IMG/VR virus record: IMGVR_UViG_3300035670_007376
Span: 18,905 to 82,904 of that record
DNA: 64,000 bases
Origin: a virus
Taxonomy: Duplodnaviria; Heunggongvirae; Uroviricota; Caudoviricetes
Reading direction: 5' to 3' (one strand)
In this document: positions 11,897-50,962 of the stretch, one piece after another
Numbering within the stretch: position 1 is the stretch's first letter
How the letters are laid out: every line of letters begins with the position of its first letter
The notes under the pieces: model-generated
Told to the model about the DNA's origin: nothing
The model's input: the letters and a program-made list of their open reading frames with translations, nothing else
Database searches by the model: none
Position numbers and translations under genes: made by a program

Positions 11897-12334
11897 ATGA
11901 TATATTGGTTTACAGGTCAACCTGGTGCAGGAAAAACAACATTAGCTAAACACTTAGTAACGTTCCTTTCAAATACGGGTAAGGTCATTCACATTGACGG
12001 AGACGATTTGAGAGACATTTTCCAAAATAAGGATTATTCGGAAAATGGTCGACGTAAAAACATAGAAAGGGCTCAAGATATTGCCCAATTTATGAATGAA
12101 AAGGGTTACGATGTTGTGGTATCTTTAGTGTCACCATATAAAGACCAAAGAGAAGAATTAAAATTAAAAACATCGGTAATTGAAATATTTGTTCATACCT
12201 CAGAAGAACGAGGTCGTGAAAATTTTCATGTCATTAACTACGAAAAACCTGAAGAAAATTTTGTGGAAATGGATACCACAGAAAATTCTGATGTTGAATC
12301 GTTTATTGAATTAATTAGTAAAATAGATTTATGA
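11897..12334 (+). CDS. cysC: adenylyl-sulfate (APS) kinase, short form
   Basis: P-loop GQPGAGKTT, then HIDGDDLRD (CysC LDGDNVR). NGRRKNIERAQDIAQF...VVVSLVSPYKDQRE...IEIFVHTS follow the CysC layout. Confidence 0.65.
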   Translation: MIYWFTGQPGAGKTTLAKHLVTFLSNTGKVIHIDGDDLRDIFQNKDYSENGRRKNIERAQDIAQFMNEKGYDVVVSLVSPYKDQREELKLKTSVIEIFVHTSEERGRENFHVINYEKPEENFVEMDTTENSDVESFIELISKIDL

Positions 12335-12711
12335 GTAAAAAATATGCAATGTACGTGGGTCGTTGGCAAAATTGGCACAAAGGACACGAATGGTTAATTA
12401 GACAACAATTAGACCAAGGTAAAAATGTTTGGGTAGCAATTAGAGACGTTGAAGTGGATGAGAATAATCCCAAAACTGCTAGAGAAGTGTTCGATTCATT
12501 AATCACCGAACCATTCTTTAACGATAATTTTGATAAAATCCTTCTATCGATAATTCCTGATATTGAAAGTATCAATTATGGTAGAGGTGTTGGATATGAT
12601 GTTATTTACCATGAACCGCCGAGTGACATTGCAACAATCAGTGGTACTGCCATCCGTACTGGTCATATGACACCAGATGGTAAAATAAAATATGATGAAA
12701 CGAAAGGGTAA
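12331..12711 (+). CDS. HIGH-motif nucleotidyltransferase (cytidylyltransferase-like: TagD / RfaE-domain-II / NMNAT class)
   Basis: YVGRWQNWHKGHEWL is the (F)xGxFxxxHxGH motif and a C-terminal ISGTAIRTG (ISSTxIR-like) is present. 126 aa, like TagD. Confidence 0.6.
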   Translation: MSKKYAMYVGRWQNWHKGHEWLIRQQLDQGKNVWVAIRDVEVDENNPKTAREVFDSLITEPFFNDNFDKILLSIIPDIESINYGRGVGYDVIYHEPPSDIATISGTAIRTGHMTPDGKIKYDETKG

Positions 12712-12716
12712 TCTAT

Positions 12717-12938
12717 ATGATTGTAGAAAGAAAACGACATATTGCTAAAACAATTTCATATAGAGTTATATCTACGTTAATTGGGTTTGTTGTAATGTGG
12801 TGGGTAAGTGGGTCAGTTAAGGTTGGTGCGGTTTTCGGGGTTACGGAATTAATTTATAAACCCATTCAATACTATCTTCATGAAAGAATATGGTATAAAT
12901 GGGTAAAATATGGACTTAGAAGAGGTGAAAAATCGTAA
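12717..12938 (+). CDS. DUF2061-like small membrane protein
   Basis: KTISYRVISTLIGFVV...YYLHERIWYKW matches DUF2061, a domain otherwise found fused to or next to APS kinases. Confidence 0.55.
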   Translation: MIVERKRHIAKTISYRVISTLIGFVVMWWVSGSVKVGAVFGVTELIYKPIQYYLHERIWYKWVKYGLRRGEKS

Positions 12939-13392
12939 ATTAAAACTATTATTAAACTTTTTAAGTAAAGAAGAATGTATTAACATCATTAATGGTAGTT
13001 ACAATCTTGAGATTTTAAAGAATAGAATATTACGGGAAATTGAAAAAAATTTTGTAACACAATTTAAAGGTTTTTATATTGGAGACTTTGTTGATTTAAA
13101 AATTGAGAAATATAACACAGAACAAAAATATAAAGATTTTGAAAAGAAAGGGGATGAAACATACGTTTCGTTTTCATTACAATTAAATAGTAACTACGAA
13201 GATGGTTTTTTTCAGTTTTTAGTTGATGATGGAAATAGATACTTCCAAGTCCATCATGGTTTGGGACATCTCATTTTATATTTTTCTGACTTACCAAAAA
13301 GGACTACTCCGGTTACAAATGGGACTAAGTACACGTTGGTTGGGTCGTTACCATTAATTAAAAAAACTAATAATAAAAACACACTTTTATAA
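12910..13392 (+). CDS. P4H-like 2OG-Fe(II) oxygenase paralog with degenerate motifs
   Basis: It shares the N-terminal LSKEECINIING motif and the middle block VSFSLQLNSNYEDGFFQF with ORF 13392 (TTVIFQLNDEYEDGEIKY). The HxD motif is not evident. Confidence 0.4.
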   Translation: MDLEEVKNRKLKLLLNFLSKEECINIINGSYNLEILKNRILREIEKNFVTQFKGFYIGDFVDLKIEKYNTEQKYKDFEKKGDETYVSFSLQLNSNYEDGFFQFLVDDGNRYFQVHHGLGHLILYFSDLPKRTTPVTNGTKYTLVGSLPLIKKTNNKNTLL

Positions 13393-13961
13393 TGTTTCAC
13401 AAATTAATTGAAGATTATTTAACACCTGACGAATGTAATTTCATTATCAATATGGGTAAATCGATTGGGTTACATAAGATGACTTCAGCAAAATTTGTTA
13501 ACGGAATTTACGCCGAAACATCGTTAAATGAAGACACCAATAAAAGAAAGGGGTGTTATTTTGTTGAGAATGATTTGAATAAACCCCAAATAAAAATAAT
13601 ATCCGAAAGGATTGTAAAAACCTTAAATGATTTAAAAATTTTTAACGGATTAGTTTATCATACAATCCCTAAGTACTCCTTTAATGAGTATACTGAAGAT
13701 GATTTTTTAGATTGGCATTCGGATTCACATGAAATATTATATGGTGCATCAACTACTGTTATTTTTCAATTAAATGACGAATATGAAGATGGTGAAATCA
13801 AGTATTTAATTGAAGGTATTGAATATTCGGTACCAAAGAAATGTGGTAGTATCTTTATTTTCGACTCTAATATCCCACATTCAGTTGATAAAATAAAATC
13901 GGGTATTAGATATTCATTAAACGTTTGGCCATCATCAAAGAAAAAAACAAATTTACTATGA
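13392..13961 (+). CDS. prolyl-4-hydroxylase-like 2OG-Fe(II) oxygenase
   Basis: HSDSHE (HxD), PHSV (second His) and RYSLNVW (Arg) are in P4Hc order. N-terminal LTPDECNFIIN. Confidence 0.6.
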   Translation: MFHKLIEDYLTPDECNFIINMGKSIGLHKMTSAKFVNGIYAETSLNEDTNKRKGCYFVENDLNKPQIKIISERIVKTLNDLKIFNGLVYHTIPKYSFNEYTEDDFLDWHSDSHEILYGASTTVIFQLNDEYEDGEIKYLIEGIEYSVPKKCGSIFIFDSNIPHSVDKIKSGIRYSLNVWPSSKKKTNLL

Positions 13962-15202
13962 AAAAAATTGTAATTGTTGGTGGAGGTACTGCTGGTTGGT
14001 TAACATCATTAGTGGTAAATAAATTTTGGAAAAACACCACAATCACTATTGTGGAGAGTTCTAAAATTGGAATATTGGGAGCAGGAGAAGGTGGTACCTC
14101 CAACTTCGGTAAAATGTTATCATTATTAGACATTAATCAAAACGAATTTTTTGAGAAAACTAAATCAACTGTAAAAGGTGGATTGCATCTTTATAATTGG
14201 ACTGGTAAAAATGAACTATCTAAACATCTATTTTTTGGTGATAATCCAAATGAAACTAATAAATCTTACGCATACCATTTTGATGCTCGATTAGTTGCGA
14301 AATATTTTAAAGAAATTGCATTGAGTAGAGGGGTTGAATGGATTGACGGAGAAGTTGATGAAATTAAAAAAGAAAATGATAAAATTACCGAATTACATTT
14401 AAAAGATAACAGAGTAATAGAATTAGACTTTGTTTTTGACTGTAGTGGGTTTTCTAAAATCATAGTAGATGGTATACATAAAGAAGAATGGATTAGTTAT
14501 ACCAAATATCTTATGATGAACAAAGCGATTGTTTTCTTTTTACCGCAAGAAAATGAGTATAAATTAAATGACAAAACTTATACCGAAATGTTATCCATGG
14601 ATTGTGGTTGGATGTTTAAAATCCCATTGCAACATAGGTGGGGATGTGGGTACGTATTTAATGATAAGTATTTAACTGTGGAAGATGCAAAGAAAGAAGT
14701 GGAAAACCATTTAGGTCAAGAGGTTATATTACAAAACGTCTTTAATTTTAATCCTGGAACACATAAAAGAAGTTGGATTAGTAATAGTATATCGATAGGG
14801 TTATCATACGGTTTCATTGAACCTTTAGAGGCAACATCGTTGATGTCAACAATAATGCAACTAAAGAAATTAATTGATATTAATTTCGACGAGGGTAATA
14901 TGGACAAATACAATAATTGGTGTTATCAAATAAACGAACAGAATTTAAACTTTATAAGGTATCACTATTTGTGTGAAAGAGACGACACTCAATTTTGGAG
15001 AGACTGTACATCGATGCCGATACCTAACAAATTAAAAAAAATACTCGATAAAAACAATTCAATCATTGCCAAGAATGATGTGGAGTTACTAAAATTATTC
15101 GAATTAGAAGACATTACACCAAACGAACTTACATTTTTTGTGAAGAATTATTTGACAATATTTAAAAAGAATAAAAAATCGAACAAAAAAGAATTGATAT
15201 AA
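13958..15202 (+). CDS. flavin-dependent (tryptophan-type) halogenase
   Basis: MKKIVIVGGGTAGW...ILGAGEGGTSNF matches the PrnA/RebH N-terminus. The conserved Lys lies in STVKGGLHLYNW. GWMFKIPL is a WxWxIP variant with the second W replaced by F. The track start at 13925 is a TTG. The ATG at 13958 overlaps the upstream stop as ATGA. Confidence 0.7.
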   Translation: MKKIVIVGGGTAGWLTSLVVNKFWKNTTITIVESSKIGILGAGEGGTSNFGKMLSLLDINQNEFFEKTKSTVKGGLHLYNWTGKNELSKHLFFGDNPNETNKSYAYHFDARLVAKYFKEIALSRGVEWIDGEVDEIKKENDKITELHLKDNRVIELDFVFDCSGFSKIIVDGIHKEEWISYTKYLMMNKAIVFFLPQENEYKLNDKTYTEMLSMDCGWMFKIPLQHRWGCGYVFNDKYLTVEDAKKEVENHLGQEVILQNVFNFNPGTHKRSWISNSISIGLSYGFIEPLEATSLMSTIMQLKKLIDINFDEGNMDKYNNWCYQINEQNLNFIRYHYLCERDDTQFWRDCTSMPIPNKLKKILDKNNSIIAKNDVELLKLFELEDITPNELTFFVKNYLTIFKKNKKSNKKELI

Positions 15203-15203
15203 T

Positions 15204-15854
15204 ATGGAAAAAATGTATTTCGACGATAATACTTACATTTGGAAAACCAAACTAAATCTAAGTCATTTAAAAGAAAAAATTGTTTTAGAAGCAAAGGATG
15301 TGATTGATTCACAACCAGATATAAAGACGGATGGGTTTGCTTATAAAAAAGAAGATAAAAACATTAATTTTATGGGTGAAGTTACAATTAAAAATAATTT
15401 AGATGAGATTGTACAAACCGGTATAAATTTATGTAAAGAATTATATGAGGAAACAAAAACACCCTATAATAGAATAAACACCGATGCGTGGGTTAACGTA
15501 GTACGTTCAAAAAATCCTGTACAGTTACAGTTTAGACACGAAGAATTAAAACACGTTGATAAGTACCATGTACATACAGTCATTAATAAAGAAATGAATT
15601 CCTTCGTACCACACTATACATATGTTTATTATATACAGATGCCTAATATTATGGATGGGGACGACGGTGTGTTATATTTTAAAAATGAAAACAATGACGA
15701 ATTTTGGATTAGACCTGAGGAGGATGATTTAATAATAATGGAAGCAACTATGCCACATGCACCAAATAATGCACCACTGTCAACAAATGATAGAATTGTT
15801 ATGGCTGGTAATGTTGGGTTTGAGTATATCAAAAAAGAAAAATCATTAATATAA
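15204..15854 (+). CDS. 2OG-Fe(II) oxygenase-like cupin (TIGR02466-type)
   Basis: DGVLYFKNENNDEFWIRPEEDDLIIMEATMPHAPNN...DRIVMAGNVGF fits the G.l.F.dP...i.P..G.lvlFPs.l.H.V...eRISISFN pattern. Confidence 0.45.
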   Translation: MEKMYFDDNTYIWKTKLNLSHLKEKIVLEAKDVIDSQPDIKTDGFAYKKEDKNINFMGEVTIKNNLDEIVQTGINLCKELYEETKTPYNRINTDAWVNVVRSKNPVQLQFRHEELKHVDKYHVHTVINKEMNSFVPHYTYVYYIQMPNIMDGDDGVLYFKNENNDEFWIRPEEDDLIIMEATMPHAPNNAPLSTNDRIVMAGNVGFEYIKKEKSLI

Positions 15855-16645
15855 TGTTAATAGATAATAAATTCATTTATTTAAGTTTACCAAGATGTGC
15901 ATCCACGTCATTTCATTATTCTTGTATCTTAAATAATTTAGACGTTAAAACTTGTGATGACGGTTGGACAAAAGAGAATAGTAATATTGACTTCACCAAA
16001 ATAAATAAAGTTGATATAATGAATTACATCTACCATGGACATGAAAGTTTGACTGATTTACAGTTAAAATTTGGTTCAGAATTTCCAATTATTGCGGTTA
16101 GAAGAGAAAGACATGAAAGGTTCTTTTCACTTTATAAACATATTTTATCAGATTTTAAAAGATTTGGTTTAGATGATTTTTATGATTTATTTTCTAAATT
16201 AACAGTAGATGAATTGTTTTTCTTTACTAAAAATGACCTATTAACCAAAAAATCAATTTGGACAAAAATTTTCACTTTTTTAGTCGATAGAGGATTGTTT
16301 GATAAAAACATGACAATGGATAAGGTGATTGCACCAATGAAGAAAAGGGGTGACTACTACAGACAAGATAAAAACCTCTATATAATCAACATATTAGAAA
16401 TCCTACTAACCCCAATATCAACATTAACAAACAATAGTAATAAAATTATTTGGTTTGACTTCAATAGAATGGGTGAAATGGAAGAATGGGTTTCAAATAT
16501 TACACGTAAACCGTTTAAGTTAGAATCTGTGAATTCAAGTAAACACATTGAATGTAGAATTGAGTTTAATGATGAATTTATTATGAAATACGATGAGATT
16601 TATGATTTTTATGATTTACAAAAAGAAAAAATAACACTAATATAA
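15854..16645 (+). CDS. sulfotransferase-like protein
   Basis: 5'-PSB-like LSLPRCASTSFHY and a 3'-PB-like VRRERHERFFSLY (R...S). Confidence 0.45.
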   Translation: MLIDNKFIYLSLPRCASTSFHYSCILNNLDVKTCDDGWTKENSNIDFTKINKVDIMNYIYHGHESLTDLQLKFGSEFPIIAVRRERHERFFSLYKHILSDFKRFGLDDFYDLFSKLTVDELFFFTKNDLLTKKSIWTKIFTFLVDRGLFDKNMTMDKVIAPMKKRGDYYRQDKNLYIINILEILLTPISTLTNNSNKIIWFDFNRMGEMEEWVSNITRKPFKLESVNSSKHIECRIEFNDEFIMKYDEIYDFYDLQKEKITLI

Positions 16646-16713
16646 AATTATATATTTATATATAAGATTTAAAAACAAAAAATAAATATTTATATTAAAA
16701 GAAACTAAATATT

Positions 16714-18210
16714 ATGAAAGGAACAATTATTGGTACCGATTTATTAGAGAAGGGAGACTCAGTAAAAATACTGGAAATCAACACAAACACAACGATTTAT
16801 AATTCTGGTGCAGATATGTTAGATTATGACACATTTTTTTCGGTTTTAACTGGAAATAACATAACAGAATTACATTTTATATATACGGAGAGTTCCTCAC
16901 ACACACCATTACCAAGTGAATTTAGATTTGAGAGAAGATTGATTGATAAATGTACCGAACTAAACATTACATATTATCCATATTTGGTACCTAGAAATTC
17001 AGTTACTGTTCCATATATCGAAGATTCTTCGAATAAGTTCATATTGAGACAATCTTTTGATACTACGGCATTAGTTGACGAAACATATTGTGCTGACAAA
17101 TTTGAGTTTTTCAAATTAATGAGTGGGTCGACTTATGTTCCAAATACATTCTTTAATTCGACAGGTATTAACATGGACACTCTATCAACGATTGACACAT
17201 CTAACACAGGACACCCAAACATTATAAAAAAACACAGATATCCACTATACGAACCAATGGATTATCCTGAGATTTATGTCTTAAATGATAATCAAGAATT
17301 AACGGACTTAAAGTCAAATAACAATCCCGAATCAAATAACTTAATACAAGAATTTATTTATGATGATGCAAATCTTGTAGATGGTAGATACAGTATAATA
17401 AGAAGTATTGATATTATTTATGGACCAACCTTAGATGTAATCAATTTGGGTGGATATCGACAATCAACAATTATCCCGTTATCTTTTACTGAAAACGAAT
17501 TCGTGGAAAACACTAATAAAATAAATCAAAAAACTAGATACAAATATATCACAAAAGAACTTGGTAATTTCTCAACAATAAATTATCACGTAGATGATGA
17601 TACCATGATTTTAAATTATGATGGTACATTAATAGATGTTGATACAATACAATTGGGTAATTTTATTAAATCAATTAATTTTCAAGATAATAATGGGAAT
17701 AATGCTGGAGACTTCCAAGAAGAAATACTTTCCGTATATGGATGGGATGGAACAATTGAAAAAACAAACGAAACATTGGAAGTGCTACAATCAGAATTAT
17801 TAGGAAAAACATCTGCGAATGTTGACACTATCTTTATAAGAATAACTCTATCAAACGGATTAACATGGAATGATTCACCAAGTTGTAAATATTATATTGA
17901 GGAATCGGGTTCTACATATACTAGATTTGAAAAAGTTAATAACATGGTTATTGGTGATAAATTAGTTGTAACCGATTCACAAACAAACCAACTAACAACT
18001 GTTGAAATAACTGGTTTAGAAATGGAATATGCGGTTAAAACAATTTATGACTTGGATTTTGAACCGTCTGATTTATTTTTAGTGGATATTGGTGATGGAT
18101 TGTTTGGTGTGATGCATAACTCATGTTGGTGTCCATGGAATTATTGTGGTTATTATTGTAATTCGTGGTATTGCCCTTCATGTTCAGGAGGAGGAATTCC
18201 AAAATTCTAA
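16714..18210 (+). CDS. hypothetical protein with Hint/intein-C-like terminus and 28-aa Cys-rich tail
   Basis: The C-terminus ...TIYDLDFEPSDLFLVDIGDGLFGVMHN|SCWCPWNYCGYYCNSWYCPSCSGGGIPKF resembles intein block F/G (vYDleVe..hnF.angilvHN followed by Cys/Ser). An upstream SCKYYIEESG...GDKLVV resembles block A. Confidence 0.5.
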   Translation: MKGTIIGTDLLEKGDSVKILEINTNTTIYNSGADMLDYDTFFSVLTGNNITELHFIYTESSSHTPLPSEFRFERRLIDKCTELNITYYPYLVPRNSVTVPYIEDSSNKFILRQSFDTTALVDETYCADKFEFFKLMSGSTYVPNTFFNSTGINMDTLSTIDTSNTGHPNIIKKHRYPLYEPMDYPEIYVLNDNQELTDLKSNNNPESNNLIQEFIYDDANLVDGRYSIIRSIDIIYGPTLDVINLGGYRQSTIIPLSFTENEFVENTNKINQKTRYKYITKELGNFSTINYHVDDDTMILNYDGTLIDVDTIQLGNFIKSINFQDNNGNNAGDFQEEILSVYGWDGTIEKTNETLEVLQSELLGKTSANVDTIFIRITLSNGLTWNDSPSCKYYIEESGSTYTRFEKVNNMVIGDKLVVTDSQTNQLTTVEITGLEMEYAVKTIYDLDFEPSDLFLVDIGDGLFGVMHNSCWCPWNYCGYYCNSWYCPSCSGGGIPKF

Positions 18211-18400: not shown

Positions 18401-18967
18401 GTGAATTATATCATAAACAATAATTTTTGTGATAAAGAGCAAGCCAATAAAATAATTGATTTTTGTATTAAATTTGGTGAACCCTTTTCATATGTTCCAA
18501 CGGAAAGTTGGGATTGTAGAAGGGTTTATGATAATAAATTTAAAGAGGAGATTATTAATTTATTGGTAGATAAGTATAGAAACGGTGATTTTAAATTATG
18601 GTTCGACTATAACACATTCAATCTAAAGAATTTCAATATTAGTTTAACGTCATATTATGACGGGAGATATCTTAATTTACATAAAGATAAAACAAGTGAA
18701 TTGACAACCGTTATTGTTTTATCTGAAGATTTTGAAGGTGGAAATTTTGTATTAACTGAAGACAAAAATCCACCTTTTCATTTTGAGACATTATCGGGTT
18801 TAACTTTATGTGATTTGAAACTCGGAGACTCCATTTCATTTAATGGTAGTGAAACGTACCATGGAGTTTTACCAGTAACTAAAGGAAAAAGAATTGCTCT
18901 AAACATATGGATGACCGAAACTGATTTTAACTACCCAAAAATTAAAAAAACTGAAACATTATTATGA
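18401..18967 (+). CDS. prolyl-4-hydroxylase-like 2OG-Fe(II) oxygenase
   Basis: LHKDKT (HxD), ETYHGV (His) and RIALNIW (Arg). The start is a GTG at 18401 and the 5' end is uncertain. Confidence 0.55.
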   Translation: MNYIINNNFCDKEQANKIIDFCIKFGEPFSYVPTESWDCRRVYDNKFKEEIINLLVDKYRNGDFKLWFDYNTFNLKNFNISLTSYYDGRYLNLHKDKTSELTTVIVLSEDFEGGNFVLTEDKNPPFHFETLSGLTLCDLKLGDSISFNGSETYHGVLPVTKGKRIALNIWMTETDFNYPKIKKTETLL

Positions 18968-19479
18968 GAATATTAATTATCTCATTACCAAGAACAGGTT
19001 CAACCTCCTTATTAAATAAGATTTCCAAAGAAAAAAAATTACAACCCCTATTTGAACCTTTTGATGGTTCTGGAAGAACACTATATTCGGATGATTTAAA
19101 GAATATCGTTCTAAAAACAATTGTATGTGAACAACACCCCAAAGACGTCGACAACTATATGGAGTGGATTACAAATTTTTCCAAAACATTTGATGAGGTG
19201 ATTTTATTGTCAAGAAAAGATTTAATTGCATGTGCTGAAAGTCATTCATATTGTGTCTTTAATAAAAGTAAAGGATTTACTTCATATAATAATTATTTGT
19301 GGGAAAAAACACCAATCGATGAAATTTGTTATAATAATGTAATCAAGTGGGATGGTTTTTTAAAAGAACTATCCATTAAATTAAAGACTCCGATTACATA
19401 TTATGAAGACATTTATGATATTAATAGTGAGGAAAGATTAAGAAAAGGTAATAAACCATCTAATCTAAATTTGATATAA
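18964..19479 (+). CDS. sulfotransferase (Sulfotransfer_3/Stf0-like)
   Basis: MRILIISLPRTGSTSLLNKI (5'-PSB loop) and LLSRKDLIACAES (3'-PB R...S). Confidence 0.6.
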   Translation: MRILIISLPRTGSTSLLNKISKEKKLQPLFEPFDGSGRTLYSDDLKNIVLKTIVCEQHPKDVDNYMEWITNFSKTFDEVILLSRKDLIACAESHSYCVFNKSKGFTSYNNYLWEKTPIDEICYNNVIKWDGFLKELSIKLKTPITYYEDIYDINSEERLRKGNKPSNLNLI

Positions 19480-20126
19480 TGAAAATTGCATTATTAACTT
19501 CCGCCAGAAGTGGGTCAACCAGTTTATTTCATTTATTTGAGGAGATGTTAAATCCACATAATTATATTTGCATTTCTGAACCATTTAACTCTTTTTGGAG
19601 AGTTCCGTCAGGATTGAAATTATATGATACTTCATTTTTTGAAAAAAAAGAAAACATTTTTATCAAAACATTTATCAGCGATTTACAAATACCAAAAGAA
19701 TTTAAAGAGGATAATAATTTATATTGGGATTGGTTTTTTAGTTACTTTGATAAGGTGATTATTTTAGATAGAAAAAATAAAGACTTACAAAGTGAAAGCT
19801 TAACATATCATTTAAAAAGTAAAGATTTCTATAGTTGGCAAAAAAAACAATTTTACGATTTATCTAAAATAGAAAAAGAGGAAATTGAAAATAATAAAAA
19901 TATTTTAATACAAGAATCAAAAAAGAAATACCTTTTTTCACAAAGAGGATATCCTCTCTACTATTTTGAGGATTTATTCATTAATAAAAACATGGAAATA
20001 ATTGAAAGTTTGTTTAACTATTTAAATTTAGAACCAAAAAAAGACCTCATTGAAAAATACATAATTTCCGATTCATTTAAAATTAGAATTAACAGCAACG
20101 ACGAACGATTCAAATCTATTATATAG
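19479..20126 (+). CDS. sulfotransferase (tandem paralog)
   Basis: MKIALLTSARSGSTSLFHLF and ILDRKNKDLQSES. Same architecture as ORF 18964. Confidence 0.6.
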   Translation: MKIALLTSARSGSTSLFHLFEEMLNPHNYICISEPFNSFWRVPSGLKLYDTSFFEKKENIFIKTFISDLQIPKEFKEDNNLYWDWFFSYFDKVIILDRKNKDLQSESLTYHLKSKDFYSWQKKQFYDLSKIEKEEIENNKNILIQESKKKYLFSQRGYPLYYFEDLFINKNMEIIESLFNYLNLEPKKDLIEKYIISDSFKIRINSNDERFKSII

Positions 20127-20815
20127 TGGCGTCCAAAATTAAAAATATTGAACTTCTTTACAAAGTGTTTGGTGACAATGCAAAACATATTCTAAATAAA
20201 TTAGATAAAGAAAAAATTAATATATCACAAAGGTCGTCTAATTTTGTTTTAAAAGTTTCAAATTTAATTTCCAATTACGTTGATTTTATCCACGCAGGAG
20301 ATTTTTCATCTGTCAATGATAAAACAATTAACACAATTCAACAAGAATATGATGAATGGTTTAACTATAATAAAATAAACTATTCAAATATAACTAATTC
20401 GAACCAAGGAACTGTATTATTTGATTATCGAGAAAATGATATAGGTTATTATTGGGTTAATCTTAATACACATTACAGTGTTGACATGATGTTTAATATG
20501 AATAACTGTGGTAGAGTTGGAGTTGAACAAAATTTAGTTTTATTAAGAGAACAAAAGAATACTAAGGAAAATTTAATGCACGTTTTAATTGTTATAAGTA
20601 ATGACAATTTTATTGTACAAATAAAAGGAGTAGAAAATAGTAAACCAAACAATTTTTACGAACATATTTTCGATTTCCTATTAAAATATGAACCAATAAA
20701 CGGGTTTAAAGGAGTTTTCAATCCTAAAAATGATTTTTCACTATTGGATTTGAAAAGAGAAGATGTTGATGAATTAAAAAAGGTTAAACCACACTTATTT
20801 CAAAAAATAATATGA
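20126..20815 (+). CDS. hypothetical protein
   Basis: 229-aa ORF. Its GTG start overlaps the upstream stop. Confidence 0.4.
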   Translation: MASKIKNIELLYKVFGDNAKHILNKLDKEKINISQRSSNFVLKVSNLISNYVDFIHAGDFSSVNDKTINTIQQEYDEWFNYNKINYSNITNSNQGTVLFDYRENDIGYYWVNLNTHYSVDMMFNMNNCGRVGVEQNLVLLREQKNTKENLMHVLIVISNDNFIVQIKGVENSKPNNFYEHIFDFLLKYEPINGFKGVFNPKNDFSLLDLKREDVDELKKVKPHLFQKII

Positions 20816-21195
20816 CATATAGAATCGTTAAGACCAATAAAAAAGGTATGTCATTATTTAGTGAAATAAACTTAGAAAGTGGAAGTTTAATCGGGGAATA
20901 TATTTCAAGAACACCTAACAATATAGGTAAGAATATTATGGATTCGGGGTTATGGGAAAGTGAAATTTGTAGGTACGTTAACCATAGTTTTAACCCTAAC
21001 AGTGAGATATTTTTTGAGGGGGATGTTTGGAATCTATATTCAAAATCAAATATTAGTATTGGAGATGAAATTGTTGTTGACTATGTTGTTGTTGCATTAA
21101 AACTTGAATTACCTGAAAATATCTTTTATAACAAAAATTTTATTGAATTTAATCTAACCAATTTCGGTGAAATCTTACCCACAAAGTTGATTTAA
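20812..21195 (+). CDS. SET-domain protein (vSET-like lysine methyltransferase)
   Basis: RYVNHSFNPN matches the NHSCxPN motif and ISIGDEIVVDY matches GEELtxdY. The N-terminal KKGMSLFSEINLESGSLIGEY is the GrGlfA...G..I.EY region. 127 aa, like chlorovirus vSET. Confidence 0.65.
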   Translation: MTYRIVKTNKKGMSLFSEINLESGSLIGEYISRTPNNIGKNIMDSGLWESEICRYVNHSFNPNSEIFFEGDVWNLYSKSNISIGDEIVVDYVVVALKLELPENIFYNKNFIEFNLTNFGEILPTKLI

Positions 21196-21222: not shown

Positions 21223-23940
21223 ATGAAGATATTAGCCCACGCACCGTTTATTGGAACAACAGGATACGCCAATCATGCACGTTCATTTTTTTGTGCATTA
21301 AACAAATATCATACCGTAAAAGTTCGTAATCTAACCATTGGTAATAGTTGGAAGGGAATGAATAATCGTCCACATGACGGAGAACCATATTTCACGGATG
21401 AAATTGGTGACATGTTAATTTTACAGACACTATACAATCAAGACGGGTCTAGAAACGACCATAATATGTACGATTATAAAGGTGACTTTGTTCCCGACGT
21501 CCATATTATCTTAATGGAGACCAATAATCATTATTTCTATGAAGAATATGAAGGTTATAAAATTGCATACAATGTATGGGAATCAACAAGATATCCTGAT
21601 GAATTCTTTAAAAGATTATTTTATTTTGACGAAGTTTGGGTACCGACTCAATGGCAATTTGATTGTTTAGTTGAACAAGGTTATCCAAAAGAAAAGATAT
21701 TCATTGTACCTGAAGGTGTGGATATCGAAACCTTTAAACCAATTAAAAAGTTCCCAAAAAGAGAAAAAATACGTTTTGTACATTTTGGTAGATGGGATTA
21801 TAGAAAAGGTACTACAGAAATATTACAAGCATTTGCAGAAGAATTTAAAGATGTTGACGATGTCGAACTTCTGGCATCAGTTGAAAACCCATATCCATAC
21901 GATGGAATGAACTCAACCGAAGAAAGAGTTAAACATTATGGTATCGATACCAAGAATATCAAGTTTCTAAATTTCCCATCAAGAGAAGAATATGTAAATT
22001 ATTTACAAACCGCACACGTATTTGTTTCGTGTGCTCGAAGTGAGGGATGGAATTTACCTCTAATTGAGGCAATGGCGTGTGGAACACCTTCAATATACTC
22101 AGATTGGGGAGGTCAACTACAATTTGCCGAAGGTAAAGGTGTTCCGGTTCAAATTAAAGGATTGAGACCCGCAAACATTGAACATAAGGAGTGGCCGGGT
22201 GAATATTGTGAACCGGACTGGGATGATTTGAAGAGACAGATGAGACAAGCGTATGATTACAATACTGCGATGTGGATAAAAGCAGTCGGAGACTCTAAAG
22301 ATATTCACGAAAAATTCAATTGGGATTCGATTGCTAAAGGTGCGTGTGAAATTTTGGAAAGAAACAAGAAACCATTTGCATTTGTGACAACAGGTAATTT
22401 AGGTTATATGCCCGTAATTGAAAAATTGGTACAATCATTACTAGAATTTTCAGAACAAAAGATTATAGTTTACGGTGTAGATTGTGATGTACCTTTCGAT
22501 TACCCCAATGTAATCAAACGAAGAATTGACCCACCAAAAATATCTGAACACGATAAGTGGTATTGGAAACAATATGCTTGTTTAGAATCACTAAATGAAG
22601 GATTTGAATATCTGATATGGATTGATGGTGATGTGGTTGTGAATCATAATATTGATACTGTTAGAAAATATTTTAATAAAGTAGGTAGATATCCGTTGTC
22701 AGATATTCATGTCCAAGAAGAATTCTTTGGGATGTATGATAATGGAAATAAATCACAATTATTCAACGAAGAACTTGCCAAAAAATGGGGAATAGAAAAG
22801 GGTCAACCATACATGCATATTTGTTTCTTTGTTTATAATAACGGTTCAAAATCACACTTCCTACAAATATTAACAGAATACCGAACGTTAATAAAGGAAA
22901 ACCCTAAAGATTACAGTAAGTATTTTTTATGGAACGATGAAGGTATTGATAATGCATTGAGATGGGTTAATGGTTATACTAATCATTTACCACTATCAAA
23001 TTTTGATACATCATCTTATGACGGTGATGAGGGATTTATTGATAAAACATTACATCAGTTTTATAAATTTTGGAACGAAGAGGGACCACAAAACTTTAAT
23101 AGAATATTCGGATACCAATACATACCGAAAGATAAATCACAAATCATTTATTTTCACGGAAATAAAAACGCGGAGATTTCAGATAAAATGATTGAATTTA
23201 TAAAAATGCAACGAGATAAATCGTTCTATAAATCTAAGTCATTTTACACTGACGTTTATAAAATAGAAAAATTTGATGATTTATATGAATACGAAGGTAG
23301 TACAATGCAAGTTGCAGAAAAATTTGGTTGGGCACCTGCGATATTCCATGAAATTTACAACCTTAGAGATTATTACAAAGATAGAGAAAAAAGAATACAT
23401 GAAGGGGACACCGTAGTAGATTTAGGTGGAAACATCGGAATCTTCAACAGATGGGCTTATAGTGAGGGTGCAAGTAGAGTAATATCATTTGAACCTGATA
23501 GAAGATACTTTAAACTATTATCATTAAACGCTGACCCACGTTCAATTCTTTTTAATGGTGCGATGTCTAATTCTGTTGGTGAGATAAGATTACACGAAAC
23601 CGAACATTTAGGTGGGTCCACAATATTAGGTGATAGTGATGATGGTTATTTAGTTAGAACATATACGTTAGATTATCTTTTTGAAAGTGGGTTAATTGAC
23701 AAGATTGATTTCTTAAAAGTGGACATTGAGGGTGCTGAACATTATGCAATCCAAGGAATAAGTGATGAAAACTTAATGAAGGTTAAAACAATATCAATGG
23801 AATACCATCACAGTCATTTTAACTACGATGAAACACTAAGACAAAATTTAATAGACAGAATGTTAAAATTAGGATTCAATTCTTATTTAATGTTTATGGG
23901 TTCAAATAATGCATTACAAATGTTATATTTCACAAGATGA
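21223..23940 (+). CDS. three-domain glycan-modifying enzyme: GT4 glycosyltransferase + GT-A-like domain + FkbM-family methyltransferase
   Basis: N-terminal third has SEGWNLPLIEAMACGTPSIYSD (GT4 EX7E region). The middle has a DxD-type domain (YLIWIDGDVVV). The C-terminus has VVDLGGNIGIF...VISFEPD...LKVDIEGAEHYAI (FkbM/Methyltransf_21). Confidence 0.65.
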   Translation: MKILAHAPFIGTTGYANHARSFFCALNKYHTVKVRNLTIGNSWKGMNNRPHDGEPYFTDEIGDMLILQTLYNQDGSRNDHNMYDYKGDFVPDVHIILMETNNHYFYEEYEGYKIAYNVWESTRYPDEFFKRLFYFDEVWVPTQWQFDCLVEQGYPKEKIFIVPEGVDIETFKPIKKFPKREKIRFVHFGRWDYRKGTTEILQAFAEEFKDVDDVELLASVENPYPYDGMNSTEERVKHYGIDTKNIKFLNFPSREEYVNYLQTAHVFVSCARSEGWNLPLIEAMACGTPSIYSDWGGQLQFAEGKGVPVQIKGLRPANIEHKEWPGEYCEPDWDDLKRQMRQAYDYNTAMWIKAVGDSKDIHEKFNWDSIAKGACEILERNKKPFAFVTTGNLGYMPVIEKLVQSLLEFSEQKIIVYGVDCDVPFDYPNVIKRRIDPPKISEHDKWYWKQYACLESLNEGFEYLIWIDGDVVVNHNIDTVRKYFNKVGRYPLSDIHVQEEFFGMYDNGNKSQLFNEELAKKWGIEKGQPYMHICFFVYNNGSKSHFLQILTEYRTLIKENPKDYSKYFLWNDEGIDNALRWVNGYTNHLPLSNFDTSSYDGDEGFIDKTLHQFYKFWNEEGPQNFNRIFGYQYIPKDKSQIIYFHGNKNAEISDKMIEFIKMQRDKSFYKSKSFYTDVYKIEKFDDLYEYEGSTMQVAEKFGWAPAIFHEIYNLRDYYKDREKRIHEGDTVVDLGGNIGIFNRWAYSEGASRVISFEPDRRYFKLLSLNADPRSILFNGAMSNSVGEIRLHETEHLGGSTILGDSDDGYLVRTYTLDYLFESGLIDKIDFLKVDIEGAEHYAIQGISDENLMKVKTISMEYHHSHFNYDETLRQNLIDRMLKLGFNSYLMFMGSNNALQMLYFTR

Positions 23941-26793: not shown

Positions 26794-28830
26794 ATGAAAA
26801 TATTTGAACCATTTATTACGGGGTCTATTTCAGTATCTGGGTCGGCACATATCCAAGGTGATTTAACCGTTTTGGGGACGATAAATGCGACAATTAGTGG
26901 TACAACTTCCAATGCTATCAGTGCGTCATATGCGTCTAATGCAGATACAATAGACGGCATCGATTCTTCAAGATTGGCAACGACAGGTAGTAACACTTTT
27001 AGTGATGACCAAATTGTTACCGGCTCTATTAAGATTGATGGTGACTTATACATAAACGGAACACAGTATACAGCTGCAAGTTCCGGTACTTCAGGTACTT
27101 CAGGTACGTCAGGAACATCCGGTTCTTCGGGTAGTTCGGGTTCTTCAGGAACATCGGGTTCAAGTGGAACAAGTGGAACTTCTGGTTCTGATGGTTCTTC
27201 GGGAACAAGTGGAACATCAGGTTCTAGTGGTTCTTCGGGAAGCTCGGGTTCAGATGGTTCTTCAGGTACCTCGGGTTCATCAGGAACTAGTGGAACATCA
27301 GGTTCTAGTGGTTCTTCGGGTAGCTCAGGTTCATCAGGTAGTTCGGGGTCTAATGGTTCATCAGGAACATCAGGTAGTTCAGGAACAAGTGGAAGTTCAG
27401 GTACCTCAGGTTCATCGGGGTCTAGTGGCTCATCAGGGACATCAGGTTCTTCGGGAAGTTCAGGAACATCGGGTAGCTCAGGGTCTAGTGGGTCTTCAGG
27501 AACTTCTGGTACGTCAGGTAGTTCAGGAACATCTGGTTCTTCAGGAAGTTCAGGGAGTAGTGGAAGTTCAGGAACATCCGGCACTTCAGGAAGTTCAGGT
27601 TCTAGCGGTTCTTCGGGAACAGTAACATTATCGGGTACAACCGATAATGGTGTATTAACACTTAACGGGTCCTCACCAAATGTAACCGCAGAATCTAATT
27701 TAACATTTGACGGTACAACATTAACTGTTACGGGTGATATTTTAATAACTAATAATTTATTAGTCCAAGGTTCAACAACAAGTTTACAGGTTAATAATTT
27801 ATTAATTGAAGATAAATTAATAACATTAGCGAGTGGGTCAGCAACAGCGGCCGCCGCTAATGGCGCGGGTATCGAAGTGGTGGGACCGACAACGGCTGCC
27901 ACGATGACGTATGTTAATACCGATGATAGTTGGAATTTTAATAAGAAAGTTAATGTTCCATCACTAACCATCAATGGTACATCTTATTCTGCTGCCACTT
28001 CAGGTACATCGGGAACATCGGGTTCATCAGGTAGTTCGGGTTCATCGGGTACATCAGGTTCTAGTGGTTCAAGTGGTACTTCAGGAAGTAGTGGAACGTC
28101 TGGTAGTTCAGGTTCCAGTGGTTCGAGTGGTACCTCGGGTTCTAGTGGTTCTTCAGGAACTTCTGGTTCATCAGGTAGTTCAGGAAGTAGTGGAACTTCT
28201 GGTTCTTCAGGTTCTTCAGGAAGTAGTGGAACTTCAGGTTCCTCGGGAAGTTCCGGTTCATCGGGAACATCGGGGTCTAGTGGTAGTTCGGGAAGTAGTG
28301 GAACATCAGGGTCATCAGGAAGTTCTGGTTCATCAGGTAGTTCAGGTACAACAACGATAACAAATGCCGCTGAGGATAGAGTAATGACGAGTACAGGTGG
28401 TGTAGGGTTAAATGGTGAGGCTAACTTCACATTTAATGGTACCACCGCATACATTGCAGGAGCATTAGGTGTTGGAACTAATACCCCAACAACAACAGGT
28501 TTGATTAGAGCAACCAATGACGTTATTGCATATTATGGTTCAGATAGTAGATTAAAAGAAAATGTGACACCAATTTCAAACCCTATTGAGAAGATTCAAC
28601 AAATAGGTGGTTATGAATACGATTGGATTCCGATGGAAGGTATTCACGAAAATGAAGGACATGACATTGGGGTAATAGCACAGGAAATTGAATCAATATT
28701 ACCTGAAATCGTAACAACAAGGGAGAATGGTTACAAAGCGGTTAAATACGAAAGATTAGTTGCTTTACTTATCGAATGTGTTAAAGACCAACAAAAACAA
28801 ATAGATGAATTAAAATCTAAATTACAATAA
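26794..28830 (+). CDS. collagen-like (Gly-Ser/Thr-Ser)n tail-fibre protein with C-terminal peptidase-S74 intramolecular chaperone domain
   Basis: Two blocks of about 180 and 115 G-S/T-S triplets. The C-terminus SDSRLKENVTPI...GGYEYDWIP...GVIAQEIESILPEIV...YERLVALLIECVKDQQKQIDELKSKLQ is the S74 auto-processing chaperone domain. A terminator lies immediately downstream. Confidence 0.85.
   Translation: MKIFEPFITGSISVSGSAHIQGDLTVLGTINATISGTTSNAISASYASNADTIDGIDSSRLATTGSNTFSDDQIVTGSIKIDGDLYINGTQYTAASSGTSGTSGTSGTSGSSGSSGSSGTSGSSGTSGTSGSDGSSGTSGTSGSSGSSGSSGSDGSSGTSGSSGTSGTSGSSGSSGSSGSSGSSGSNGSSGTSGSSGTSGSSGTSGSSGSSGSSGTSGSSGSSGTSGSSGSSGSSGTSGTSGSSGTSGSSGSSGSSGSSGTSGTSGSSGSSGSSGTVTLSGTTDNGVLTLNGSSPNVTAESNLTFDGTTLTVTGDILITNNLLVQGSTTSLQVNNLLIEDKLITLASGSATAAAANGAGIEVVGPTTAATMTYVNTDDSWNFNKKVNVPSLTINGTSYSAATSGTSGTSGSSGSSGSSGTSGSSGSSGTSGSSGTSGSSGSSGSSGTSGSSGSSGTSGSSGSSGSSGTSGSSGSSGSSGTSGSSGSSGSSGTSGSSGSSGSSGTSGSSGSSGSSGSSGTTTITNAAEDRVMTSTGGVGLNGEANFTFNGTTAYIAGALGVGTNTPTTTGLIRATNDVIAYYGSDSRLKENVTPISNPIEKIQQIGGYEYDWIPMEGIHENEGHDIGVIAQEIESILPEIVTTRENGYKAVKYERLVALLIECVKDQQKQIDELKSKLQ
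27085..27621 (+). repeat. tandem 9-nt (GGN-WCN-WCN) coding repeat block 1, encoding (G-S/T-S)n
   Basis: Periodic GGT/GGA-ACT/TCT/AGT-TCA/TCG triplets of triplets. GC-richer than the surroundings. Confidence 0.85.
28003..28350 (+). repeat. tandem 9-nt coding repeat block 2, encoding (G-S/T-S)n
   Basis: Same degenerate repeat unit as block 1. Confidence 0.85.
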
Positions 28831-39289: not shown

Positions 39290-39884
39290 AGGTTATAACA
39301 TAAAATATGAATGGTCTAAATCATATATCGATTGGAAAGGATATACCCCAAAAGTACATGGCGAAGTCATATCAGAAAAATTAAACTTAGATTTAAGAAA
39401 TTTAGGTTTAGGTGGGTCCGACAATTATTCAATCTTTCAAAATTTTTGTGACGTTTCAAATAAAATTAAGGAAGATGATATAGTAATTTTCGGATGGTCA
39501 AGTCCAATGAGATTTAGATTGGTAGGTAATCATAATACATGGAAAACATTTATTCCAAACTATACAAAAAATCTTAGTGACATCAACGGAATTAGCATTA
39601 ACACAATAAATGAATTATTAATTCATAGAGATAATGTTAAATTTGTTGAAGAGGTGAATAGCTGGATAACACTAATTGATAATTTTTTGGTCAACGTAAA
39701 TCATGTTCATTGGACAATATTTGATGACAGAATAAAGGCACATATGATTAGAGGTCTTAACACAATAAAGAATGAAACCAACGGGGATGTTGATGACGGA
39801 CATTTTAGTGAGGAAGGACAGTTTCAATTATCAGAAAAATTAATTCATCTTTTATCAATTAAAAATAAAAATACATTAATATGA
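39252..39884 (+). CDS. SGNH/GDSL-family hydrolase (esterase/acyltransferase)
   Basis: N-terminal WTFGDSLTEGY is the GDSx block-I motif. Confidence 0.65.
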   Translation: MATLWTFGDSLTEGYNIKYEWSKSYIDWKGYTPKVHGEVISEKLNLDLRNLGLGGSDNYSIFQNFCDVSNKIKEDDIVIFGWSSPMRFRLVGNHNTWKTFIPNYTKNLSDINGISINTINELLIHRDNVKFVEEVNSWITLIDNFLVNVNHVHWTIFDDRIKAHMIRGLNTIKNETNGDVDDGHFSEEGQFQLSEKLIHLLSIKNKNTLI

Positions 39885-50536: not shown

Positions 50537-50962
50537 ATGCAAGAAGAGTTTGTACCTTATCACCAACATCTTTTAATGAAGATTTGGATTACTAATCCAC
50601 CTAAAGAAGTGGATGTACTCAACAAGTGGTTTGTTGATTTAGTTCATAAAGTTAAAATGGAAGTGGTTGGTGGACCAACCAGTGTCTATGTTGATTATCC
50701 TGGTAACGAAGGATTAACGGGAACAGTCACATTAGCAACATCACATTCCTCAATCCATATTTGGGACCATCAAAGTCCCGCAATGGCCCAATTTGACATC
50801 TACAGTTGTAAATGTTTCACTTTAAGTGATGTTTTAGAACAATTTGAACCTTGGGGTATTGTAAGTGTTGAGTGGGTAATGATTGATAGAAATGAAAGTC
50901 CAGTTATAACGTCAAGTGGTACTTGGACCCCACAATTGGAATATATTGATGAAATTTCATAA
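50537..50962 (+). CDS. S-adenosylmethionine decarboxylase-like protein (pyruvoyl-dependent SpeH/SpeD type)
   Basis: LATSHSSIHIWDHQSPAMAQFDIYSCKCF matches aESHisiHTWPE...vDvftCG (processing Ser in the SHSS block). 141 aa. Confidence 0.55.
   Translation: MQEEFVPYHQHLLMKIWITNPPKEVDVLNKWFVDLVHKVKMEVVGGPTSVYVDYPGNEGLTGTVTLATSHSSIHIWDHQSPAMAQFDIYSCKCFTLSDVLEQFEPWGIVSVEWVMIDRNESPVITSSGTWTPQLEYIDEIS

Follow-up and report, generated by a model that had tools for sequence, protein, structure and literature searches.

Marine phage genomes were found to carry halogenase genes in 2010 at the latest, and VirX1 from cyanophage Syn10 (PDB 6qgm) is a useful iodinating biocatalyst. To our knowledge, neither the native substrate nor the biological role is known for any phage halogenase. 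VirX1 (530 aa) has the full helical 'pyramid', the canonical WxWxIP and ESTG motifs, and an open, accessible active site. The BrvH/Xcc4156-type enzymes (PDB 6frl, 6y1w) and the marine gammaproteobacterial proteins 9luq and 2pyx are bacterial, comprise ~490–525 aa and are often encoded in tandem arrays. MibH (541 aa, PDB 5uao), a lanthipeptide tryptophan 5-halogenase, belongs to a bacterial lanthipeptide cluster. In the flavin-dependent halogenase (FDH) family, a separate flavin reductase provides FADH2, which reacts with O2 to form C4a-hydroperoxyflavin; the latter oxidises a flavin-adjacent halide to hypohalous acid, which travels ~10 Å to the catalytic Lys (PMC7336383, PMC5659210).

The window, i.e. 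the 64,000-nucleotide stretch of viral DNA analysed here, encodes a compact FDH at 13958..15202 on the plus strand. The ORF begins with the ATG at 13958, ends with the stop at 15202, and codes for 414 aa; an in-frame upstream TTG at 13925 is unused among the homologues, nearly all of which have 413–416 aa and begin with MKK. The protein matched Pfam Trp_halogenase (PF04820) with E = 1e-88 and 298.7 bits (cut-off 21), PHROG 2928 'tryptophan halogenase' with E = 1.5e-93, PrnA with E = 2.3e-51, VirX1 with E = 6.7e-51, and MibH with E = 6e-34. The four motifs listed by a previous sequence-only reading are all in place: IVIVGGGTAGW (residues 4–14), ILGAGEGGTSNF (39–50), STVKGGLHLYNW (70–81), and GWMFKIP (217–223). 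The FAD motif is formed by G8-G-G-T-A-G13, followed by W14; G8, G9, G10, and W14 are invariant among 118 relatives. In the HMMER alignment, the catalytic Lys/Glu pair is present, with K73 (STVKGG) corresponding to PrnA K79 (AFKAAI) and E291, the second Glu of FIEPLEATS (F286–S294), to PrnA E346 (FLEPLESTG). Both residues are kept in 100% of the compact clade, and K73 in 157 of the 158 compared representatives. The gene is under strong purifying selection. Judged from its sequence, it is a genuine, selectively maintained FDH of a pared-down type.

Like VirX1, the window protein is virus-encoded, belongs to the Trp-halogenase family, carries the catalytic Lys/Glu, and has no adjoining reductase; its active site is probably likewise open. 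VirX1 is, however, only ~29% identical to it and among the most distant of the 159 sequences compared, and the window protein has WxFxIP and EATS in place of the canonical motifs. As seen in the alignment, the compact halogenases lack an insert of ~50–75 aa after residue 92 and ~35–40 C-terminal residues, which also sets them apart from the BrvH/Xcc4156-type proteins, and both substrate regions are shorter than in the latter. The 414-aa protein does not have the full ~500–530 aa box-plus-pyramid architecture, and its clade is the smallest Trp-halogenase-type architecture encountered in our analysis. Because of the missing insert and C-terminal residues, we regard it as a reduced variant of the open-site indole halogenases rather than a plain member.

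The deletions affect regions that enclose the substrate. Substrate-closing region 1 (RebH 156–166) falls within the missing insert, whereas region 2 (RebH 442–467) is reduced to a few residues. In PrnA, Y443, Y444, E450, and F454 bind the amino-acid moiety of Trp (PMC5659210). None of the compact forms has the stretch with Y443/Y444/E450, as judged against a PrnA sequence that agrees with the HMMER alignment over residues 6–108 and 155–408. On the same basis, the indole-stacking aromatics are kept, with H90 (invariant), F92 (at least 90%), and F393 (invariant)/F394 corresponding to PrnA H101, F103, and W455. The earlier designation as a tryptophan-type halogenase holds for the family, whereas the anchor residues for free Trp and the closing loops are gone. 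Alignment and secondary structure point to a wide-open active site with the catalytic Lys exposed.

The compact clade was found on viral contigs only, and the nearest cellular-genome homologue is no closer than 34% identity. The clade appears to be virus-specific; bootstrap support for the monophyly of the compact form is weak (33–37 of 100). A halogenase is not unusual in a phage, given the characterised VirX1 and the homologues in 83 isolate phage records and more than 585 viral contigs. Phage halogenases as such are already known; what is distinctive here is the compact clade together with its optional cassette. PHROG 2928 is common to the window halogenase and the marine myophage 'PrnA' genes (T4-GC 212). 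The best isolate match, gp079 of Pelagibacter phage HTVC008M (37% identity), has the same EPLEATS motif and, as in the window, a 2OG-Fe(II) oxygenase directly upstream. In contrast, gp079 has 464 aa, keeps the insert, and is flanked by the terminase subunit genes instead of being part of a glycan island. Synteny with the HTVC008M order (TerS-2OG-halogenase-TerL) was rejected: the window 2OG oxygenase is not the gp078 orthologue, and u498, the gene downstream of the cassette, is unrelated to TerL. Megablast of positions 12900–16700 against isolate phages gave no match, so the locus has no close cultured relative. The 80 best cellular loci have no neighbour genes in common with the viral halogenase loci, and 47 of them contain tandem paralogue arrays. 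A literature search for halogenases in pelagimyophages or associated with polysaccharide utilisation found nothing.

We propose, with a probability of about 70%, that the gene encodes a functional two-component FDH of a compact, apparently virus-specific clade, which would use an open site to modify a bulky aromatic acceptor as part of an optional tailoring cassette. No sequence or fold match to the single-component FDHs (AetF/Bmp5) was detected, and the 414 aa contain no second nucleotide-binding domain, i.e. no built-in NAD(P)H reductase module. A flavin reductase was not found in the 64-kb window, part of a genome that may measure ~290 kb; the host would presumably supply this enzyme. A halide beside the flavin at T293/S294 would be converted to hypohalous acid, which would reach K73, and K73 together with E291 would steer electrophilic halogenation of an electron-rich aromatic carbon. 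In the Fx.Px.Sx.G motif, A292 stands in place of Ser and S294 in place of Gly. The latter change is shared with BrvH and the Xanthomonas enzymes, and this one residue at the halide site hints at the use of bromide or iodide. Given a site that is wide open, halogenation would target an indole- or phenol-type ring carried by a bulky acceptor, for which a peptide or protein is the most plausible candidate; free L-tryptophan and bare sugars would not be substrates. Late-stage halogenation of bulky substrates could be a practical use of such a minimal open-site enzyme.

The neighbouring genes are all on the plus strand. Directly upstream is a 2OG-Fe(II) oxygenase of 189 aa (13392..13961; Pfam 2OG-FeII_Oxy_3, E = 8.8e-9; phrog_61, E = 5.6e-21), whose stop shares 4 bp (ATGA) with the halogenase start. 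It is preceded by a short 2OG-Fe(II) oxygenase-like gene of 160 aa (12910..13392; phrog_61, E = 4.5e-6; NCBIfam Fe2+-dependent dioxygenase, E = 7.8e-4). The halogenase is followed by a 2OG-oxygenase-like gene of 216 aa (15204..15854; phrog_81 2OG-Fe(II) oxygenase, E = 7.9e-10; weak Pfam PF13640, E = 0.013) and by u263 (263 aa, 15854..16645), the last cassette gene in nearly all loci. The N-terminal LPRCASTSF loop of u263 resembles a sulfotransferase by eye only. The protein has no match in Pfam, PHROG, NCBIfam, or PDB, and its assignment as a sulfotransferase found no support, Pfam and PDB giving no match even at E ≤ 10.

Gene-order analysis showed that [2OG oxygenase]-halogenase-2OG-like-u263 is an optional cassette, always situated between u498 and DUF2061, a small predicted membrane protein of 73 aa (12717..12938; Pfam DUF2061, E = 1.6e-15) that is the upstream anchor. 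The literature on DUF2061 offers only Fur/iron-regulon listings and nothing on function. Between identical anchors, the halogenase is present or absent; at about 15 of the 16 sites with the cassette, the halogenase is followed by the 216-aa gene and then u263. In 28 of 29 compact-clade loci, which are phylogenetically non-independent, a 2OG oxygenase is located no more than 300 bp from the halogenase, and such adjacency is far more frequent in viruses than in bacteria. Variable regions of marine phages are so rich in 2OG oxygenases that some chance adjacency is expected. In this large, uncultured phage, the halogenase and its adjoining 2OG-Fe(II) oxygenases would act together as an optional tailoring cassette within a plastic island.

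Between DUF2061 and an upstream kinase gene lies u125 (12331..12711), a small HxGH nucleotidyltransferase-like protein (WHKGH ... ISGTAIR; NCBIfam NMNAT/cytidylyltransferase, E = 1.4e-5 to 3e-4, under the cut-offs). We rejected u125 both as the partner flavin reductase and as a homologue of the 'NAD synthetase' that neighbours the halogenase of P-SSM2; BLASTP and hhalign showed no similarity. u125 and DUF2061 are paired in 69 of 79 viral loci; they were dismissed as obligate halogenase partners, since a reciprocal scan found the halogenase in just 9 of the 79 such loci. Promoter and terminator scans gave results at the level of shuffled sequence, and no tRNAs were found.

The downstream anchor, u498 (498 aa, 16714..18210), is a conserved protein that combines an N-terminal ATP-grasp-like acid-amine ligase fold with a C-terminal Hint (intein/Hedgehog) fold. 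Y291, H292, and D294 are invariant around the expected start of the Hint domain, where there is no invariant Cys or Ser. The domain terminates in the invariant H468-N469, followed by a 29-aa tail, SCWCPWNYCGYYCNSWYCPSCSGGGIPKF, rich in Cys, Trp, and Tyr, with the pattern x-CWCPW-xx-CG-xx-C-xxxx-C-xx-C. A tryptophan-rich tail beside a halogenase suggests a peptide as the halogenated substrate, instead of a sugar or free tryptophan, which makes u498 a candidate substrate. The acceptor is most likely a bulky aromatic one and possibly this tail peptide. With a specific candidate acceptor beside the halogenase cassette, the role of a phage halogenase becomes directly testable.

Of the other explanations, the least improbable is that the enzyme halogenates a diffusible metabolite of the host, either indole or some other aromatic, and that the gene is an auxiliary metabolic one with no relation to its neighbours, placed at an insertion hot spot; we consider this possible, though doubtful. 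In vitro, VirX1, BrvH, and the Xanthomonas enzymes accept free indoles along with many small aromatics for halogenation (PMC8407142, PMC7336383), although these are not known as native substrates. The presence or absence of the halogenase between fixed anchors is typical of hyperplastic-region cargo, and its homologues in HTVC008M, S-PM2, and Syn10 have quite different surroundings. On the other hand, cargo independent of its neighbours fits poorly with the nearly constant company of the 216-aa gene and u263 and with the viral bias in 2OG oxygenase adjacency. If small indoles were the true substrate, the protein would simply add to a viral auxiliary gene family that is already known. A more specific and rather unlikely proposal is that the Hint domain of u498 cuts off a Cys-knot-like tail by Asn cyclisation and that the halogenase, 2OG oxygenases, and u263 decorate its Trp, Pro, and Tyr residues; with the tail freed in this manner, the phage would make a ribosomal, halogenated, Cys-rich peptide. 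Consistent with this proposal, the cassette is always directly upstream of u498, the Hint fold precedes the tail, the CWCPW-type tail accompanies the halogenase in 27 of 28 loci, and u498 paralogues with other hypervariable Cys-rich tails are without it in 10 of 11. The predicted open site, the missing anchor for free Trp, and the precedent of MibH for peptidyl-Trp halogenation point in the same direction; lanthipeptide genes of the MibH kind are absent from the window. However, shared ancestry confounds the correlation between tail and halogenase, and one locus (L176) has a CWCSW tail and no halogenase. Moreover, no u498 was found near the halogenases of HTVC008M, the cyanophages, or any long-form viral locus, the tail has pLDDT < 50 in the structure model, its cleavage is putative, and its fixed Cys positions might serve metal binding or disulfide formation in a protein that stays intact.

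Halogenation of a glycan, as the sequence-only reading had envisaged, received no specific support, although the 'glycan island' setting itself was borne out. Positions 1–36.6 kb of the window contain at least ten glycosyltransferase-like genes, two epimerase/dehydratases, a carbamoyltransferase, three methyltransferase domains, an APS-kinase-like gene, sulfotransferase-family genes, five to six 2OG-Fe(II) oxygenase-like genes, and a tail-fibre gene. The location of the halogenase in this ~36-kb island and the recurrence of a carbamoyltransferase beside distant viral halogenases (L033, L037, L039, L058, L062, L064) would suit an aromatic or enol-type glycan substituent built by the island. Yet FDHs require an electron-rich aromatic or enol carbon, which sugars do not have, no PKS, acyl-CoA ligase, or acyltransferase for aromatic acyl groups was seen in the window, and sister genomes with the island do without the halogenase, which makes such a substrate improbable. 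The replacement of the second Trp of WxWxIP, correctly noted before, was also considered: the motif reads W218-M-F220-K-I-P223, the second position being F in 95% of clade members and W in 5%, and WxFxIP occurs sporadically among long-form halogenases. It is very improbable that this change admits the substrate to the flavin, giving a monooxygenase (e.g. a LodB/QhpG-like peptidyl-Trp hydroxylase), or that the protein is catalytically dead. WxWxIP is not universal in active FDHs (PMC8407142), so the Phe variant speaks neither for nor against family membership. F286-I-E-P-L-E agrees with the FX[DE]PX[EFL] tunnel motif, and in fold the protein resembles halogenases more closely than it does group A monooxygenases.

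A bulky aromatic acceptor remains our preferred reading, and some further observations concern the surroundings of the cassette. The 2OG oxygenases are of the prolyl-hydroxylase family, and genes for PAPS supply and sulfotransferases lie close by. Modification of Trp, Pro, and Tyr is also the set found in cone-snail toxins. The u498 paralogues of sister phages, with their different tails and no halogenase, would, if the tail is indeed released, represent a diversifying family of virus-made peptides. The kinase upstream of u125 is an APS-kinase-like P-loop protein of 145 aa (11897..12334; Pfam APS_kinase, E = 1.9e-19) with the motifs GQPGAGKTT, DGDDLR, and SLVSPY; it matches NCBIfam adenylyl-sulfate kinase models at ~2e-19, under their cut-offs. 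Two adjoining genes of 171 and 215 aa (18964..20126, plus strand) have PRTGSTSL and ARSGSTSL loops. The gene at 18964 gave only chance matches against PDB and is called sulfotransferase-family because of its homology to an L005 protein. Both genes are 30% identical to the latter (E = 5e-10 and 7e-11), which scores 26.4 bits with Pfam Sulfotransfer_1 and so passes the cut-off of 22.

The halogenase gene ran from the ATG at 13958 to the stop codon at 15202 on the plus strand and encoded 414 residues. Nearly all homologues are 413-416 aa long with an MKK N-terminus, so ATG 13958 was taken as the start rather than the upstream TTG at 13925. The halogenase assignment made in the sequence-only reading was borne out, and the four motifs quoted there occur exactly as written. 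The Pfam PF04820 profile matched with E = 1e-88 (298.7 bits, cut-off 21), PHROG 2928 ("tryptophan halogenase") with E = 1.5e-93, and 30 solved tryptophan-type halogenases with E-values from 8e-52 to 4e-29, among them PrnA, RebH, PyrH, Thal, BrvH, Xcc4156, MibH and the phage enzyme VirX1. Matches of this strength to the family are far beyond chance. In the HMMER alignment, K73 corresponded to PrnA K79 and E291 to PrnA E346; both residues, likewise the GGG..W flavin motif and W218, were invariant in 118 clade members (62-99% identity). The catalytic Lys/Glu pair is thus present, and the fold lies closer to halogenases than to group A monooxygenases; neither refutation proposed in the sequence-only reading succeeded. 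As had been noticed, the second Trp of WxWxIP is replaced (WxFxIP), with Phe in 95% and Trp in 5% of the clade. The variant appeared sporadically in long (~500 aa) relatives that retain the Lys and Glu, and active halogenases do not all carry WxWxIP (PMC8407142). Pairwise dN/dS values were 0.04-0.30, with dS mostly saturated (0.066 for the least saturated pair); selection thus maintains the gene.

An exhaustive search over 1.84 billion representatives returned 4,592 relatives, 1,072 of them at E ≤ 1e-30. Nearly all were ~500 aa long and matched the window protein in two stretches; compact relatives (382-436 aa), which matched end to end, were limited to about a dozen clusters at 50% identity. 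In the alignment, two pieces were missing from the compact forms: an insert of ~50-75 aa that follows window residue 92 (PrnA ~105-155), and a second segment taking in PrnA Y443/Y444/E450 and their surroundings plus the last ~60 residues. In PrnA, the amino-acid part of tryptophan is bound by Y443, Y444, E450 and F454, and the indole is stacked by H101, F103 and W455 (PMC5659210). The former set is deleted in the window protein; the latter is retained as H90, F92 and F393/F394, invariant or nearly so. RebH residues 156-166 and 442-467 form two substrate-closing loops that are short in BrvH and Xcc4156. In these two enzymes the site is open and Ser or Asn replaces the halide-site Gly; they brominate indoles but not free tryptophan, and peptides have been suggested as their native substrates (PMC7336383). 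Like them, the window protein has Ser at the halide-site position (FIEPLEATS); unlike them, it lacks both loop regions altogether, which together indicate a further-reduced open-site type. The proposed PrnA/RebH likeness holds at the family level and was too specific beyond it, as the residues holding free tryptophan and the closing loops are absent; judged from its sequence, the enzyme is not a free-tryptophan halogenase of the PrnA/RebH kind. In a neighbour-joining tree built on 388 well-occupied columns, all 17 compact forms shared a single split free of long forms, with a weak bootstrap of 33-37/100, and PrnA and VirX1 were among the most distant sequences of the set. Residues 6-108 and 155-408 of the PrnA sequence used in these alignments match the HMMER alignment.

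Such genes had been thought unusual for a phage, which proved wrong. Homologues were found by tblastn in 83 isolate phage records, mostly of cyanomyophages and Pelagibacter phage HTVC008M (the best match, 37% identity), and most are annotated as tryptophan halogenase; an IMG/VR scan added at least 585 confirmed viral contigs. Sullivan et al. (2010) reported "PrnA" (T4-GC 212) in 7 of 16 cyanomyophages (PMC3037559), and a 2023 review counted the gene in 20 of 153 cyanophage genomes (PMC10452541). The structure of VirX1 of cyanophage Syn10 has been solved and its iodination and bromination activity measured (PMC8407142). BFVD also includes a 393-aa "Flavin-dependent halogenase [uncultured Caudovirales phage]". 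The closest cellular matches (one genome per species, 185,579 species) were proteobacterial long forms, 27-34% identical, which had no neighbours in common with the viral loci and were often arranged as tandem paralogues (47 of 80 loci). By these comparisons the compact clade appears specific to viruses, and the window halogenase is a new reduced variant of an already known viral enzyme kind. In one compared locus (L005, 10001-12464), two compact halogenases of 412 and 407 aa lie in tandem, the second ~41% identical to the window protein; the arrangement resembles the Syn10 pair (L006, 4482-7587) and the bacterial tandem paralogues. Two short IMG/VR contigs with halogenase relatives (L018 and L047) bear giant-virus MAG labels (GVMAG-M-...), which may be binning errors, since the window has phage-type tail-fibre and lysis genes.

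Genes were packed or overlapping from 11897 to 16645, in the order APS-kinase-like, u125, DUF2061, two 2OG-Fe(II) oxygenase-like (2OG), halogenase, a 216-aa 2OG-like protein and u263; a 4-bp overlap joins the halogenase start to the upstream 2OG stop. Scans for promoters and terminators remained at chance level. No scanned ORF of the 64-kb window matched a flavin-reductase family, and so none supplied a partner of the kind the sequence-only reading had in mind. These halogenases take FADH2 from unrelated reductases, e.g. E. coli Fre (PMC5659210), so host supply is the simplest assumption. Long-contig relatives keep the order APS kinase-u125-DUF2061-[2OG]-halogenase-2OG-like-[2OG]-u263-u498, and the u125-DUF2061 pair also lies directly 5' of distant long-form viral halogenases (33-37% identity). 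In the reciprocal scan of 79 viral loci from u125, DUF2061 was adjacent in 69, a carbamoyltransferase was nearby in 42 and APS kinase in 37, whereas the halogenase was found in only 9, which makes it accessory rather than an obligate partner of u125-DUF2061. DUF2061 and u498 acted as anchors, adjacent in 9 loci and separated in ~16 by a cassette, [±2OG]-halogenase-2OG-like-[±2OG]-u263. With iterated profiles, a 2OG gene lay ≤300 bp from the halogenase in 28/29 compact, 17/59 long-form viral and 1/80 bacterial loci. The pairing is recurrent and virus-specific, but 2OG genes abound in the variable regions of marine phages, and the compact loci are non-independent.

In the adjoining u498 (16714-18210, plus strand, 498 aa), an ATP-grasp-like ligase fold is joined to a Hint fold (intein/Hedgehog) and a 29-aa Cys/Trp/Tyr-rich tail. 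The Hint domain terminates in an invariant His-Asn, followed by the tail SCWCPWNYCGYYCNSWYCPSCSGGGIPKF, whose pattern x-CWCPW-xx-CG-xx-C-xxxx-C-xx-C is kept. No invariant Cys or Ser was seen at the Hint-domain start, so C-terminal cleavage via Asn cyclisation is plausible chemistry, and the tail could plausibly be released in this way; u498 looks like a self-processing peptide-release module. Homologues occur in compared loci L002-L031 and L169-L241, and the ~575 family members are all "hypothetical". Divergent paralogues in sister phages share the architecture, but what follows "..EHN" in them is an entirely different hypervariable Cys-rich tail, or next to none. CWCPW-type tails accompanied a halogenase in 27/28 loci and other tail types lacked one in 10/11. 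Shared ancestry confounds this correlation, and elsewhere related halogenases of phages occur with no u498 nearby.

The glycan setting was confirmed, the first ~36.6 kb of the window being a sugar-tailoring island. The triad at 11897-12938 (plus strand) comprises the APS-kinase-like gene, u125 (small, HxGH nucleotidyltransferase-like) and DUF2061 (a membrane protein); u125-DUF2061 neighbourhoods usually also contain either APS kinase or carbamoyltransferase. The triad possibly provides a minimal route of sulfate activation, or makes a different nucleotide-linked cofactor. In distant loci, u125 is fused at its N-terminal side and makes up the C-terminal half of a protein of ~260 aa. Two adjacent sulfotransferase-family genes (18964-20126, plus strand) showed 30% identity to an L005 protein passing Pfam Sulfotransfer_1, and with the APS-kinase-like gene they suggest that the island may yield sulfated products. 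The N-terminal loop of u263 (15854-16645) is similar to these, without detectable homology. A 678-aa tail fibre (26794-28830, plus strand) with 136 Gly and two long collagen-like (G-S/T-S)n tracts could be a target of the island's modifying enzymes. Its gene is embedded amid glycosyltransferase genes, those on the opposite strand beginning right after it. A 127-aa SET-domain protein (20812-21195, plus strand; Pfam SET E = 1.1e-7), of protein lysine methyltransferase fold, adjoins a 905-aa glycosyltransferase-methyltransferase fusion (21223-23940).

The reading we favour, at a probability of about 0.7, is that the halogenase is functional, of the two-component type and very open at its site, that it draws FADH2 from the host and modifies a ring of indole or phenol type on a bulky acceptor, and that it belongs with 2OG oxygenases to an optional tailoring cassette. 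A non-halogenating role is highly improbable. Among acceptors for the favoured enzyme, a diffusible aromatic is a tentative candidate and the u498 tail peptide an unlikely one. An aromatic substituent on a glycan appears more doubtful still: the gene's location inside the island is the one point in its favour, but sugars are not substrates for flavin-halogenase chemistry, and the window showed no genes for the biosynthesis of aromatic acyl groups. The locus owes its interest to a compact and apparently virus-only architecture, to its behaviour as a cassette and to the adjoining Hint-tail protein; together these make the long-open substrate question for phage halogenases approachable by experiment.

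The window also encodes peptidase/endolysin-like proteins, thymidylate synthase, DNA methyltransferases and speD; it contained no tRNA genes across its 64 kb. The nearest relatives of the halogenase and of u498 are found on 278-334 kb contigs. The 395-aa thymidylate-synthase homologue (39881-41068, plus strand) extends ~100 aa beyond the matched PHROG profile span and is closest to Flavobacterium myophages (58.6% identity to vB_FspM_immuto) and to uncultured megaphages of 630-640 kb (46-54%). The protein may hint at host or lineage, or be a modified-base synthase. The source may reasonably be guessed to be a large, uncultured tailed phage, and the host is possibly a member of Bacteroidota, from the 30% GC. 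Other genes, unrelated to the halogenase, encode two adjacent PcfJ-like proteins (42159-45471, plus strand), the S-adenosylmethionine decarboxylase SpeD (50537-50962), a GHKL-type ATPase-domain protein (58027-59568) and an SPFH/Band 7 protein (63079-63993).
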